NCBI GenBank assembly: GCA_963757295.1
Contig: CAVWQZ010000011.1
Location: 36,899 to 100,898 of the forward strand
Reading direction: 5' to 3'
DNA from: an uncultured Actinomycetota bacterium
GTDB taxonomy: Bacteria; Actinomycetota; Actinomycetes; JACCUZ01
DNA length: 64,000 bases
Below are positions 47,813 to 54,296 of this stretch, piece after piece. The position numbers and the translations under genes were made by a program. The notes beneath the pieces are model-generated. The model was not told the DNA's origin and did no database searches. It worked only from the letters and a program-made list of their open reading frames with translations. Position 1 is the first letter of the stretch. Each line of letters starts with the position of its first letter.

Positions 47813-48236
47813 GTGGCGCCCGAGCGCGCGCGGACCCGGGTGGCAGCGTTGCTGCTGGTCGCCGCCGCCGTGGTCGTCGCGCTCCTGAGCCCCCTGCTGT
47901 CGGCGGGTCTCGCGCACCGGTCGCCCAGGCCCGACGGGCCTCAGCGCCACCACCCGGACCACCCCCCTCGCGACGGCTGCGCGGGGATCGCTCGGGCAGG
48001 CGCCGGAGCGTGTTGCCCGGGCTGCGGTGCAGGCCCGGCACGTCGCCCAGCTCTCGCACACCGGCAGCGGACCTGCGGGGCAGCACCTGACGGCGGCACT
48101 GGCCGGCGTCGGGCTGCTGTTCGCCCTCGCGGGGCGGCGGCTGCCGTCTCCAGCTCGAGCACGGACACCGAGCGGCACGGATCGCGCGACCCAGCGCAAC
48201 CGTGGGCCGCCTCGGGCAGCAGCACGTCTCGCCTGA
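47813..48236 (+). CDS. Secretion-monitor arrest peptide (ApdA-like) with RGPP motif (frameshift ~47920)
   Basis: RBS GGAGG; N-terminal TM; second TM; C-terminal ...RNRGPPRAAARLA*; directly upstream of secDF. Confidence 0.7.
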
Positions 48237-48264
48237 CGCTGCCCATCTGCCCGGAAGGTCCCTC

Positions 48265-50597
<2,333 letters not shown>

Positions 50598-50739
50598 AGG
50601 AGCGGCTGCGCCGGCCGGGCTCAAGCGGGCCAAGCCCGGGCGCGACCCCGGGGACAGCGGCGCGGTGCTCTAACCCTCATCCACCGGTTGTCAGACTCTC
50701 GTGGCCTGTCTGGGCCACCACGTTCTGACACCGGCTTAG

Positions 50740-51111
50740 TCAGCTGACCGGGCTGGTCAGGACGGCGGCGAGCGCGTCCATCGCTCCGGGCACCGGGCGG
50801 AAGTAGGCCCAGCGCCCGCGCTTCTCCCGCTCCAGCAGGCCGGCCTCGACGAGCACCTTCATGTGGTGGCTGATCGTCGGCTGGGACAGGCCGAGCGGAT
50901 CGGTCAGGTCGCAGATGCATCCCTCGCCGGCGTCGGAGGCCAGCACGAGCGACATCAGCCGCAGCCGGGCGGGGTCGGCCAGCGCCTTGAGCCGCCCGGC
51001 CAGCACCTCGGCGTCCGCCTCGGACAGCGGCGCCGAGGAGAGCGGTGGGCAGCACGGGGCTGCGTCGCCGTCGAGCAACGGCAGCAGGCGGGGGGTGGTC
51101 GCGCTCGTCAT
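50740..51111 (-). CDS. arsR: ArsR family metalloregulator
   Basis: N-terminal CC; KALADPARL; CICDL; SQPTISHH. Confidence 0.92.
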   Translation of the reverse strand: MTSATTPRLLPLLDGDAAPCCPPLSSAPLSEADAEVLAGRLKALADPARLRLMSLVLASDAGEGCICDLTDPLGLSQPTISHHMKVLVEAGLLEREKRGRWAYFRPVPGAMDALAAVLTSPVS

Positions 51112-51130
51112 GGACCCATCATGGCGCACA

Positions 51131-51186
51131 TATTGACATCTGTCGATTGATGGGCCATCGTCCTCATGCATCGACAAGAATCAATA
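51131..51186. promoter_or_regulatory. Probable ArsR operator
   Basis: TATTGACATCTGTCGAT ... ATCGACAAGAATCAATA inverted repeat. Confidence 0.7.
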
Positions 51187-51202
51187 CGAGGAGGTGGGAC
51201 AC

Positions 51203-51259
51203 GTGGACTGCTGCGACGACATCTGCACCGAGCAGGACTGTGGCGTCGGCTGCTGCTGA
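51203..51259 (+). CDS. 18-aa Cys-rich micropeptide MDCCDDICTEQDCGVGCC
   Basis: SD GAGGAGGTG directly upstream of GTG; 6 Cys; stop overlaps the aquaporin start region. Confidence 0.75.
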   Translation: MDCCDDICTEQDCGVGCC

Positions 51260-52005
51260 CCCATCGGCCGCTGGCCCGACGCCTGCTGGCCGAGTTCGTC
51301 GGCACTGCCCTGCTGGTGACCATCGTGGTCGGCTCCGGCATCGCCGCGGAGCGGCTCTCGCCTGGCCAGGCGGGCCTGCAGCTGCTGGAGAACTCGACCG
51401 CAACGGCGCTCGGGCTGGCGGTGCTCATCCTCACGCTCGGGCCGGTGTCGGGCGGGCACTTCAACCCGGTCATCTCCGCCGTGGACTGGGTCATCGGCCG
51501 CCGGTCCGGTTCCGGGCTGACTCCGCGGGCCCTCGGGGGCTACGCCGTGGCTCAGCTGGCGGGGGGCGTCGCGGGCGCCGTGCTCGCCAACCTGATGTAC
51601 GAGCTGCCGGCGCTCGAGCTGGCAACCACCGAGCGCAGCGGAGCCGGGGTGGTGATCGCCGAGGTCGTCGCCACGGCCGGACTGGTCACGGTGGTGTTCG
51701 CCTTGGCCCGCAACGGCTTTGCTGCCTGGTCTGCTCCCGCCGTCGGCGCCTACATCGGGGCTGCCTACTGGTTCACGTCCAGTACGTCGTTCGCCAACCC
51801 GGCTGTCACGGTCGGGCGGATGTTCTCGGACACGTTCGCCGGGATCGCGCCCGGGTCCGTGCCGCCGTTCCTGGCCGCTCAGGCCGTCGGCGGCCTCGTC
51901 GGCGCCGCGCTCGTCCTGGCCCTCTATCCCGACGCCGCCGCTGCGGCGGACGATGTCGTCGTACCGCATGACGGGCCGACAACCCACAAGAGAGGCGACC
52001 GCTGA
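51256..52005 (+). CDS. MIP/aquaporin arsenite channel (AqpS-like); start uncertain
   Basis: AEFVGTA, SGGHFNPV and WFTSSTSFANPAVT motifs. Confidence 0.88.
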   Translation: MTHRPLARRLLAEFVGTALLVTIVVGSGIAAERLSPGQAGLQLLENSTATALGLAVLILTLGPVSGGHFNPVISAVDWVIGRRSGSGLTPRALGGYAVAQLAGGVAGAVLANLMYELPALELATTERSGAGVVIAEVVATAGLVTVVFALARNGFAAWSAPAVGAYIGAAYWFTSSTSFANPAVTVGRMFSDTFAGIAPGSVPPFLAAQAVGGLVGAALVLALYPDAAAAADDVVVPHDGPTTHKRGDR

Positions 52006-52424
52006 TGACCGACCGGCCGAGTGTGCTGTTCGTCTGCGTGCACAACGCGGGCCGCTCCCAGATGGCAGCCGGATTCCTGCGGACGCTGTCCGGCGACTCC
52101 GTGGAGGTGCGCTCGGCCGGCACCGCCCCGGCGGACACCATCAACCCCGTCGTCGTCGAGGCGATGAACGAGGTCGGCGTCGACCTGTCGGAGCAGACCC
52201 CGAAGGTCCTGGACCCGGCCGTCGTGCAGGCCAGCGATGTCGTGGTCACGATGGGCTGCGGCGACGAGTGCCCCTACTTCCCGGGAACGACCTACCTCGA
52301 CTGGGAGCTGCCCGACCCGGCCGGGCAGGACCTGGCTGCGGTCCGCCCCATCCGCGACGAGATCCGCCGCCGCGTTCTGGAGCTGCTCGAGACGCTGCGA
52401 CCGACCGTTGCTCCGACGGACTGA
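52005..52424 (+). CDS. arsC: Arsenate reductase (LMW-PTP fold)
   Basis: FVCVHNAGRSQM, MGCGDEC and DPAG motifs. Confidence 0.92.
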   Translation: MTDRPSVLFVCVHNAGRSQMAAGFLRTLSGDSVEVRSAGTAPADTINPVVVEAMNEVGVDLSEQTPKVLDPAVVQASDVVVTMGCGDECPYFPGTTYLDWELPDPAGQDLAAVRPIRDEIRRRVLELLETLRPTVAPTD

Positions 52425-52530
52425 CCAAACAGCCCGATTCGCCCCGCGACCGACCAAGATCAGTCACACTCTGGGCTGACGTCGATGCGGCCCGAGACCC
52501 CGGCCGCGGGCCGCGTACGCAGCCGCGGGG

Positions 52531-54296
52531 GTGAGCGTGGAGGGCCCAGCGGAGACGAGCAGCGCCGCGGCGCGCTTCGCGGCCGTCGGCGTGGAGCGCT
52601 ACGAGCTCGCCCTGCAGGCCGGCCGGATGGGCACGTGGTACTGGGACGTGGCCGCGAACCGGATCGACTGGGACGACCAGCTCCCCCGCGTGTTCGGCCT
52701 CGAGCCGGGTCGAGTTCGACGGCACCTTCGACAGCTACCTGGGGCTGCTGCACCCGGACGACGTCGAGGCGACGATCGCCTCGATCCAGGACTCGGTGGC
52801 GACCGGCCGTGATCACTACATCGAGCACCGGGTGATCCACCCGGACGGCACCGTGCACTGGGTGAGCGGCACCGGGCGACCCATCGTCGGGCCGGACGGT
52901 GAGGTCGTCGCCATGGTGGGTGTCGGCGCGGACATCACCGAGCAGCACGCGGCGCACGAGGCGACCCTGGCCGCCGAGGCGGCGACTGCCATCGCGCAGG
53001 ACGCCGCCGCTCGCTCGCAAGCCCGGCTGGCGCTGCTGGGGCGGGTCAGCGGCGTGCTCGGCGCCTCTCTCGACGTCAGCACCACCCTGCAACAGCTGGC
53101 CGACATCGTCGTGCACGAAGGGCTTGGGCGACTGGTGCGCGGTGGAGGTTCCCGGCGGGCCACACGGGGTGCGCCGGCTGGCGCTCGCGCACCGTGACCC
53201 GGCGATGGTGGAGTTCGCCCGCCGGGTGCAGGAGGACTACCCCCCGCAGCTGCGCGACGACCAGGGAGTCGGCAAGGTCCTGCTGACCGGGGAGCCCGAG
53301 CTGTGGCCCTCGATCCCGCCGGAGCTGATCCGCCAGTCGGCCGTGGACGAGACCCACCTCGAGCTGATCGAGAGCCTGCAGATCAGCGCCGGCATCGTGG
53401 TCCCGCTGACGGCCCGGGGCCGGGTGCTCGGGGTCCTGAGCCTCGTGGGGTCGGGCGGACGCACCTTCGACGAGGAGGACATGGCCGCGGCGATGGAGCT
53501 GGGTGCGCGCGCCGGCGTCGCGCTGGACAACGCCTACCTGTACGACGACCGCGACACCGTGGCCCGCACCCTGCAGCAGAGCCTGCTGCCGCACACCTTG
53601 CCCGACGTACCGGGTCTCGATCTGGCCGCGGCCTACCGCCCGGGGAGCATCACCCTCGGCATCGGGGGCGACTTCTACGACGTGTTCCCCGCCGGCGAGG
53701 GAAGCTGGCGGCTGGTCATCGGAGACGTGTGCGGCAAGGGCGTCGAGGCCGCTGCCCTGACCGGTGCCGTGCGCTACGCCCTGCGCACCGCCGCGGTGCT
53801 GACGCCGTCACCGGCGGCGGCGCTCGCCATCGTCAACGACACCCTCCTGCGCGAGGACTGGCAGCACCGCTTCGCGACGCTCACGCTGCTCGCCGTCGAC
53901 CTGTCGGAGGGGTCGATCCGGGTCACCGCCGCCAGCGGCGGTCATCCGCCGCCGCTGCTGCGGACGGCCGACGGCACGGTCACCAGGGTCGAGGCGCCGG
54001 GCACCATCGTCGGGACGCTGCCCGATGCGCAGTTCAGCGAGACGACGTTCGAGCTGGCCGCGGGGGACTGCCTCTTCCTCTACACGGACGGCATCGTGGA
54101 GGCGGGCGCGCCCGGGGAGATGTTCGGCGACGACCGGTTGATCGCTGCGCTGGAGTCCGCGGACATCAGCTCGGCGTCGGGCATCACCCGCAAGATGCTG
54201 GCGGCGCTGGACGCGTTCGTGGCGCCATCCGACGCGCGCCGCCGGGCCGACGAGGGCCGTGACGACCTCGCGCTGCTGACCGTCCTGGTCGGCTAG
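52531..54296 (+). CDS. PAS-GAF-SpoIIE (PP2C) phosphatase (frameshifts)
   Basis: LHPDD, GGDFYD, GDVCGKG, YTDG and DDLA motifs. Confidence 0.9.

Follow-up and report, generated by a model that had tools for sequence, protein, structure and literature searches.

A short cysteine-rich gene at the head of an ArsR-linked arsenic operon, and its junction with an aquaporin gene lacking a canonical start codon, in an uncultured actinobacterium

The six-cysteine sORF and the arsenic operon of the window

The window analyzed here is a stretch of 64,000 nucleotides (nt) from an uncultured Actinomycetota bacterium (assembly GCA_963757295.1, contig CAVWQZ010000011.1, positions 36,899 to 100,898), and all coordinates below are those of the window. 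On its + strand, a small open reading frame (sORF) lies at 51203..51259, ahead of the genes for an aquaporin-like channel and an arsenate reductase and divergent from a gene for an ArsR-family repressor. The sORF consists of a GTG at 51203, 17 further codons and a TGA at 51257-51259, and is preceded by the Shine-Dalgarno (SD) sequence GGAGGTG (51190..51196, +; GAGGAGGTG from 51188) with a 6-nt spacer to the start codon. The predicted 18-residue peptide contains six Cys and five Asp or Glu residues, includes a CC-x3-C arrangement, and ends in Gly-Cys-Cys. The ORF listing gave this frame from an earlier GTG at 51194, located inside the SD sequence, which corresponds to a 21-residue reading; the GTG at 51203 was assigned as the start because the homologues described below begin with M-[DE]-x-CC.

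The G+C count at third codon positions (GC3) was 17/18 in the sORF frame, whereas in the aquaporin frame it was 14/34 over 51166-51267 and 220/245 in the aquaporin body. This contrast indicates that the sORF frame is the coding frame in this stretch. In addition, genome G000 (3.23 Mb) contains 18 reading-frame tails that end in CC-stop with at least five Cys, and the sORF alone among them is acidic and carries both an SD sequence and a start codon, the other 17 being Arg-rich off-frame readings. Together with the conservation described below, these readings of the DNA confirm the proposal of a first-pass annotation that an SD-led GTG...TGA ORF with six Cys and five acidic residues is present, and identify it as a real, unannotated, conserved gene that heads the ArsR-linked operon.

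The gene downstream of the sORF (51253..52005, +) encodes a MIP-family channel (aquaglyceroporin-like, in an AqpS-type context; Pfam MIP, 2.7e-23). It has no canonical start codon, and its 5' end was placed at CTG 51253 by homology. It is followed by an arsC-like gene for an arsenate reductase of the low-molecular-weight (LMW) phosphatase type (52005..52424, +; Pfam LMWPc, 2.7e-20), the best NCBIfam matches of which are arsenate reductases at 92-94 bits, under their cut-offs. The TGA of the aquaporin gene and the ATG of arsC share one base (TGATG at 52003-52007), an overlap that gives the operon the form of a chain of overlapping cistrons: sORF, aquaporin, and arsC. On the opposite strand, the divergent arsR gene (50740..51111, -) encodes an ArsR/SmtB-family repressor with an N-terminal Cys-Cys (Pfam HTH_5, 6.6e-14). 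This protein passed the ArsR/SmtB metalloregulator model NF033788 of NCBIfam (82.7 bits against a cut-off of 55), and its best specific NCBIfam model was that of the Rv2640c family, at 117 bits, under the cut-off of 155.

Between arsR and the sORF lies an imperfect 22-nt inverted repeat (arms at 51131-51152 and 51165-51186; 73% complementarity in the repeat search), which is a candidate ArsR operator. In an alignment with seven related metagenome contigs, both arms were kept and the 12-nt centre was variable. The repeat as a whole (51131..51186) covers a candidate promoter of the sORF-aquaporin-arsC operon (51133..51161, +), in which TTGACA (51133-51138) is separated by 17 nt from a -10-like CATCGT (51156-51161) that ends 41 nt 5' of the sORF start codon. 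The TTGACA is a perfect -35 hexamer and was invariant in 8/8 aligned sequences. A simple promoter scan did not list this site on the + strand, and the promoter is called from our reading of the DNA. The sole sigma-70-like match of that scan in 50600-52700 (shuffles mean, 0.0) was a promoter-like site for arsR, TCGACA-17 nt-CATGAT (51118..51146, -), the second hexamer of which ends 6 nt before the ATG at 51111; because of this short distance, the arsR mRNA may be leaderless. From this arrangement, we infer that the repeat is an ArsR operator placed on a bidirectional promoter.

A family of 13-21-residue thiol peptides beside metal(loid) sensors

The aquaporin was used as the query on 61 related genomes, which yielded 30 loci (one of them, L003 from the unpublished genome G017, is counted in denominators only). 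The regular expression applied to these loci was CC...CC-stop. A same-strand upstream sORF of 13-21 codons was found in 14 of the 30 loci, and all 14 start with ATG or GTG behind a GGAGGTG at a distance of 6-7 nt and finish with Gly-Cys-Cys-TGA. The constancy of the SD sequence and of the TGA is informative, because the search demanded neither, nor a start codon. A degenerate pattern derived from the 14 sORFs was then scanned over one genome per species from 185,579 species. The 64 matches comprised 57 clear in-frame sORFs of 13-21 codons, one probable case (L041), and six spurious ones (in a cyanobacterium, Desulfuromonas, Brevefilum, a Dehalococcoidia metagenome-assembled genome (MAG), a Woesearchaeota MAG, and Alistipes).

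The genuine matches belong to Actinomycetota and to six Chloroflexota (four Limnocylindria and two Chloroflexia). The actinomycetotal carriers include Nocardioidaceae/Marmoricola, Jiangella, Amycolatopsis, Actinophytocola, Geodermatophilus, Thermocrispum, Terrimesophilobacter, Leifsonella, Agrococcus, Demequina, and Nitriliruptorales, as well as many MAGs. The family has the form M-[DE]-x-CC-[DE]...GCC-stop. In 60 unique sORFs, Cys accounts for 38.7% of the residues, Asp and Glu together for 26.1%, Gly for 11.5%, and Thr for 8.4%, while Lys, Arg, and His together make up 1.3% and Phe 0.2%, so that basic and hydrophobic residues are nearly absent. The Cys codons are TGC in 339 and TGT in 32 cases. 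The Cys residues are arranged as pairs and singles 2-10 residues apart, with runs of three being rare (L056 and L070), and non-Cys positions are also conserved, as shown by the acidic residues after the first CC and the Gly before the last CC. The four closest sORF pairs exhibited synonymous differences only, and the ratio of non-synonymous to synonymous differences per site (pN/pS) was 0.55 over 22 independent (non-overlapping) pairs of equal length.

The family is absent from annotation, its genes being too short for gene callers. No Pfam family was matched at E<=0.01 by the 21-residue reading of the window peptide, and no NCBIfam family at E<=10 by six peptides of 20-21 residues, in both cases with profiles that have little power at this length. 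An exact look-up of five family peptides among about 15 billion proteins found none of them, a tblastn search of plasmids with the 21-residue reading, which is insensitive for such a query, gave no match, and no description of the family was found in the literature outside subscription journals.

The neighbourhood of the family was characterized using local hidden Markov models, built from Pfam-verified neighbours and run on 60 loci (58 scan-derived loci, L001, and L025). Of these 60 sORFs, 57 have an ArsR or MerR ORF no more than 1.5 kb away, compared with 0/6 of the spurious loci, and about 1.2% of G000 is that near to one. Classified by their nearest regulator, 30 loci have a clearly divergent ArsR upstream of the sORF, 16 have a same-strand MerR directly upstream, and eight have a same-strand ArsR downstream; in three further loci, the ArsR ORF call spans the sORF on the opposite strand. 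The other neighbours are LMWPc/ArsC (31 loci), MIP (21), an ArsI/CadI-type glyoxalase (15, with two examples passing NCBIfam NF041414), PHO4 (8) with PhoU_div (7), and an ArsM-like methyltransferase (5).

In the frame that holds the ArsI/CadI C terminus of L034, the reading continues without a stop into the sORF, and a frameshift is possible there. The ArsI/CadI proteins encoded just upstream of the sORF or the aquaporin in L012, L021, L025, L030, L032, L045, L057, and L061 carry a Cys pair at most two residues from the C terminus, and often a second pair about 8-20 residues earlier, and these tails resemble the free peptide.

For the MerR-linked loci, the best match of the regulators was the Hg-MerR model, under its cut-off; they carry a CxC and two Cys nine residues apart, a pattern that we take to be like that of Hg-MerR. 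In 8/16 of these loci (L039, L054, L063, L071, L078, L087, L092, and L094), a divergent class-I pyridine-nucleotide disulfide oxidoreductase is encoded about 0.5-2 kb upstream of the sORF. The two examined, those of L039 and L054, contain a CPYYAC motif, lack a C-terminal Cys pair, and score under the NCBIfam cut-offs for MerA and lipoamide dehydrogenase. The label MerA was rejected on the grounds of these scores and of the missing Cys pair. The MerR-linked context is therefore described as one of thiophilic metals or thiol stress, with a tentative link to mercury. The oxidoreductase may be a reductase for the peptide.

These neighbours raise the alternative that the peptide would be a redox peptide, the Cys pairs of which cycle between dithiol and disulfide as a private LMW thiol without metal chelation. 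Thioredoxin, or the flavoprotein disulfide reductase encoded next to the MerR-linked copies, would return it to the dithiol form, and it would feed ArsC or counter thiol stress. The divergent oxidoreductases in half of the MerR-linked loci and the thioredoxin genes in L058 and L061 are consistent with this idea, as is the requirement of LMW-phosphatase-type ArsC for a thiol reductant. Conversely, what constantly accompanies the sORF is a sensor of metal(loid)s rather than of redox state, the Cys spacing of the MerR-type regulators resembles that of metal-binding MerR proteins, and similar CC tails are found on the ArsI/CadI enzymes encoded in these loci. We consider such a redox function distinctly unlikely.

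The RNA downstream of the sORF was also compared. A GC-rich hairpin begins 0-24 nt 3' of the sORF stop, and a post-stop hairpin of -17 kcal/mol or lower occurs in 41/59 loci, compared with 28/236 random sites in the same loci; at -25 kcal/mol or lower, the counts are 24/59 and 4/236, respectively. In 11/16 MerR loci, the next called gene is convergent, which makes the sORF the last co-directional gene, and several ArsR loci hold sORF-only units. In the sister loci L058, L060, L061, L031, L085, and L072, the sORF is followed by the hairpin, by a conserved promoter-like GTTCACC...GTTCGCTTGCA motif, and, about 120-190 nt further on, by an aquaporin with its own ATG. Thus, the typical family member appears to form a small transcription unit of its own or to stand last in one, and such self-contained units favour a function of the peptide itself over that of a leader.

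A motif of the form GTTCACC-N4-GTTCG-N-TTG(C/A) was found 30-120 nt after the sORF stop in L058, L060, L061, L031, and L072, and also in L025-L028 and L030. It stands after the post-sORF hairpin and before the aquaporin or a second arsR, and resembles a second operator with a promoter; the window is without it.

A role as a regulatory leader or arrest peptide, in which translation itself and not the product would matter, and in which progress through the six Cys codons, or arsenite bound to nascent Cys pairs at the UGA-C stop, would decide on hairpin formation and, in the window, on re-initiation at the aquaporin, had been suggested in the first-pass annotation in the form of a Cys-sensing leader. 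Several features fit it: in loci such as L031, L042, L044, L060, and L070, the hairpins 0-24 nt after the stop can be reached by a terminating ribosome and are followed by same-strand ars genes, and the window aquaporin has no start codon of its own. The nearest published class of sORFs also has such a function, since Cys-rich sORFs of mycobacteria are cysteine-responsive attenuators that are unannotated and head actinobacterial operons, as the family sORFs do (bioRxiv 10.1101/834739). Those attenuators, however, are leaderless and contain consecutive Cys tracts, whereas the family members are all SD-led, none being leaderless, with spaced Cys pairs instead of runs, and lie beside metal sensors, often with no co-directional gene after them; that paper makes no mention of arsenic, ArsR, or metals. 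The position of the sORF as last co-directional gene in most MerR loci, the sORF-only units, the conserved non-Cys positions, and the promoter-like motif between hairpin and aquaporin in the sister loci also argue against a leader. In the window itself, the segment 51168-51300 folds no better than shuffled sequences (z = +0.42) and 51050-51350 contains no Rfam match at E<=1, and an RNA element at the sORF leader was accordingly rejected. As a function of the family, where most members are self-contained with a hairpin, the Cys-sensing leader was not supported, and we regard the leader reading as unlikely.

The junction of the sORF with the aquaporin gene

In the window, 8 nt separate the sORF stop from the conserved Pro codon of PLARRLLAEF in the aquaporin core, and no hairpin is present. 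In the aquaporin frame, no ATG, GTG, or TTG is present between the ATG at 51166 and the conserved PLARRLLAEFVGT. The frame instead contains three CTG codons, at 51250, 51253, and 51256 (51250..51258, +), which are located inside the Gly-Cys-Cys-stop of the sORF; the triplet is GGC-TGC-TGC-TGA read one base earlier, and the last CTG overlaps the stop as C-TGA. A pattern search for the window subfamily gave seven metagenome contigs, and six of them (L095, L096, L097, L099, L100, and L101) have the same junction. The three CTG codons are the only in-frame start candidates common to the window and these six contigs: a TTG at -49 occurs in just two of the six, as a by-product of a TGT Cys codon, and an ATG at -94 is out of frame in two. 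The pN/pS of the aquaporin was 0.20-0.26 in comparison with L095, L097, and L099 (249 codons) and L101 (137 codons), indicating from the codon comparison that the aquaporin is under purifying selection. The claim of the first-pass annotation that the aquaporin lacks a canonical start was borne out by these independent contigs. The CTG 51256 to which it pointed is in frame and overlaps the stop, but by homology to relatives the likeliest start is CTG 51253 instead.

In the window and its relatives, the junction has the stop/start proximity of translationally coupled pairs, with the CTG codons within or overlapping the last codons and the TGA of the sORF, whereas an ATG, GTG, or TTG start, as expected of the downstream gene of such a pair, is not common to the clade. 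The same relation is seen for uPPE2-PPE2 of M. tuberculosis (PMC11260477) and for ATGA/TGATG pairs (PMC6728339), in which the downstream gene needs a short upstream ORF, the stop and start overlap, and the downstream frame is -1. Those overlaps use AUG, whereas the codon at the window overlap is CUG.

Other ways into the aquaporin frame were considered and rejected. For the ATG at 51166, the GC3 of the intervening codons is the low 14/34, L099 and L100 have the ATG in another frame, and it lies inside the candidate operator. For a downstream in-frame GTG (the Val of LLV), the differences between contigs in the RPLARRLLAEF codons ahead of it are mostly synonymous, which indicates that these codons are translated. 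A prfB-type +1 frameshift at UGA-C leads to the wrong frame, and translational bypass would need a matching UGC in the aquaporin frame, whereas the next one is out of it.

An assembly artefact, in which a missing base would conceal either an in-frame Cys-rich N terminus of the aquaporin or a normal start, was also considered; the former had been named in the first-pass annotation as an indel that would undo its reading. The genome is an incomplete MAG (66.7% complete), and the secD/secF region of the window looks frame-shifted. Nevertheless, the identical junction is present in the six independent contigs, all 60 other loci have the GCC-TGA ending irrespective of what comes after it, and contigs of four runs from four studies span the junction with 0 gaps and no indel listed. 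Two of these are DNA runs (X1, record 3; X4, records 21 and 23), and two are RNA-library runs (X15, record 9, 51180-51330; X18, records 13-15). With the shared junction and the gapless contigs, an indel artefact is excluded for practical purposes, and we regard this explanation as barely credible. The contigs from the RNA libraries fit one transcript that contains the SD sequence, the sORF, and the 5' end of the aquaporin.

A UGA followed by C is a weak stop context. Together with the missing canonical start of the aquaporin, this context would suit a fusion in which some ribosomes suppress the stop, change to the -1 frame at UGC-UGC-UGA-C, and carry the Cys peptide into the aquaporin frame, which would give the channel a thiol-rich cytoplasmic N-terminal tail. 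The geometry is also like that of the uPPE2-PPE2 AUGA overlap, where the downstream frame is likewise -1 and a minor frameshifted fusion was detected in addition to termination-reinitiation (PMC11260477). Against a fusion stand the lack of a slippery sequence, since a tRNA-Cys bound at UGC would be unable to pair with the CUG one base upstream, the separate sORF and aquaporin units of the sister genomes, and the absence of an in-frame fused form among the 30 related loci and the seven metagenome contigs. These features make the fusion quite improbable.

The relatives suggest how the junction arose. In 17/29 of them, the start codon of the aquaporin either shares bases with an upstream TGC-TGA stop or comes immediately after it, and this stop is usually that of a second arsR ending in ...Pro-Cys-stop. 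Eight of these read c-TGA-TG with an ATG start, eight (L016, L017, L024-L028, and L030) read GTG-CTG-AC/G with the GTG as the sole start, and in one an ATG follows one base after the stop. The window reads CTG-CTG-CTG-ACC, and CTG 51253 matches the GTG start of the eight relatives. Seven of these eight GTG-type loci (all except L024) carry a sORF 380-550 nt upstream of the aquaporin, ahead of the second arsR. Because the junctions of the window and its relatives align, the most likely origin, as judged from that alignment, is a deletion: two copies of TGCTGA, one closing the sORF and the other closing arsR, would have recombined with loss of the segment between them, which probably removed the hairpin, the second arsR, and its promoter, and turned the GTG start of the aquaporin into CTG 51253. 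Since the sister aquaporins have their own ATG and a promoter-like motif, gating of the aquaporin by the sORF would be a derived, local property of the window's clade.

A proposed inducible thiol peptide and its relation to known systems

With somewhat better than even confidence, we read the sORF as a translated micro-gene at the head of an ArsR-repressed operon, the product of which is a thiol peptide that binds metal(loid) ions, with the coupling through CTG being specific to the window's clade. In this reading, the sORF is the first cistron of the operon sORF, aquaporin, and arsC, which ArsR would repress, and the family genes in Actinomycetota and some Chloroflexota would be controlled by metal sensors, either of the ArsR family or Cys-rich ones of the MerR family. 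The peptide would most likely serve to bind arsenite or other thiophilic metal(loid) ions directly. As(III) takes three thiolates, and one six-thiol peptide could therefore hold two As(III). It may act as a buffer that is made on induction, or may carry its ligand to the channel, ArsC, ArsI/CadI, or ArsM, and would in effect be a gene-encoded analogue of phytochelatin or metallothionein. The first-pass annotation had pointed to a mini-metallothionein or an arsenic chaperone, a proposal that fits the composition of the family and its constant ArsR/MerR-family neighbourhood, and from these we infer binding.

For translation of the operon, synthesis of the channel would depend entirely on ribosomes that, after terminating on the sORF, start again at CTG 51253 (or at 51250 or 51256), and translation of arsC would follow through the TGATG overlap. 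Output from a CTG start is probably low, which, by way of speculation, would suit a bidirectional arsenite channel. Strict dependence of a downstream gene on an overlapping upstream sORF through termination-reinitiation has a precedent in M. tuberculosis uPPE2-PPE2 (PMC11260477).

Several points weigh against this interpretation, and the first two concern the start codon. CTG is a poor start codon in Actinobacteria: in M. tuberculosis Ribo-RET data, ATG, GTG, and TTG are enriched at initiation sites and CTG is not (PMC9094748), and CUG was used as a non-start mutation in the PPE2 study (PMC11260477). The contigs from RNA libraries do not prove transcription, and in two of the six junction contigs (L096 and L100) the aquaporin frame is interrupted about 70-150 nt past the junction. 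For the family, the CC-[DE] and GCC-TGA were imposed by the scan pattern, so that their invariance in the 57 scan-derived members is partly by construction; the 14 aquaporin-derived members, among them L025 with CC-V, are the ones free of this bias. The sORF pN/pS of 0.55 is moderate, with distant pairs compared without gaps, and the neighbour genes come in part from our own GC3-based or stop-to-stop ORF calls, including those that place the sORF last in the MerR loci. Finally, the sub-cut-off NCBIfam scores of the MerR-linked regulators and oxidoreductases make the link to mercury tentative and leave room for a redox role.

The broken frames of L096 and L100 could be explained by low-coverage errors or by decaying copies.

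A variant in which the Cys-Cys-stop of the nascent or finished peptide would act as a metalloid-sensitive translational switch, with the 18-codon gene as sensor, buffer, and gate at once, appears improbable to us. Arsenite caught at the weak UGA-C stop would alter the exit of the ribosome from the sORF, which would in turn set re-initiation at the CUG, or slippage that gives the channel a thiol-rich tail.

Returning to the proposed inducible thiol peptide, its closest counterparts in organization are smtB-smtA of Synechococcus and AzuR-NmtA of Anabaena, which share with the window an ArsR/SmtB sensor gene next to a gene for a small Cys-rich product, usually divergent, with a promoter that overlaps a palindrome. 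The family peptides also have the metallothionein-like trait of high Cys content with few aromatic or hydrophobic residues. Conversely, no sequence relationship of the family peptides with SmtA or NmtA was found (no match in Pfam or NCBIfam, with short queries); SmtA has about 55 residues, whereas the family peptides have 13-21 and no His ligands, and they are encoded among genes for arsenic rather than for zinc or cadmium. The phytochelatins, (gamma-Glu-Cys)n-Gly, resemble the family in being short, acidic, and thiol-rich; they are induced by As, Cd, or Hg and chelate via Cys, as the family peptides would also do. Phytochelatins are made enzymatically from glutathione, whereas the family peptides would be ribosomal and gene-encoded, with their own SD sequence and stop.

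Partial likenesses to other arsenic and mercury proteins were also seen. As in ArsD, a vicinal Cys pair is accompanied by a third Cys a few residues off (CC-x3-C in the window peptide), and, as in the tails of MerA and ArsI/CadI, the family peptides end in a C-terminal Cys pair. In contrast to ArsD, the window peptide is free-standing, with no fold and no ArsD homology in Pfam. No ArsA was identified by Pfam on the three proteins of the operon or in the regional ORF list, with no search aimed at ArsA.

To our knowledge, bacterial metallothioneins are regarded as rare and have about 50 or more residues. The family would belong with the sensor-controlled metallothionein-like products, and the aquaporin without a start codon, apparently coupled to the sORF, is an unusual local feature. 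If the interpretation given above is correct, thiol peptides of 13-21 residues on arsenic and soft-metal sensors would be an overlooked component of arsenic resistance in many actinobacterial lineages and some Chloroflexota, the ars operons would include a sequestration or hand-over step, and the peptides would provide a minimal natural scaffold for the capture of arsenite or mercury. The window would also be a natural case of a selected gene with a CTG-only start inside the stop region of an upstream sORF, and offers a system for asking how far termination-reinitiation relaxes start-codon choice in Actinobacteria.

Two further features of the region were noted. A gene for a PAS/PP2C-type sensor begins at 52531 of the window, after arsC; in L098, a sORF with an ATG start is located at 860-910 with no aquaporin or arsC, and a homologue of this sensor gene begins about 150 nt downstream. 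At 48202-50597 (+) of the window, a SecD-like ORF (48202-49566) overlaps another ORF (48846-50597), the C-terminal part of which is SecF-like, by about 700 nt in a different frame. The tail of the SecD-like ORF resembles an off-frame reading, suggesting a possible frameshift in secD, either real or caused by an assembly error.

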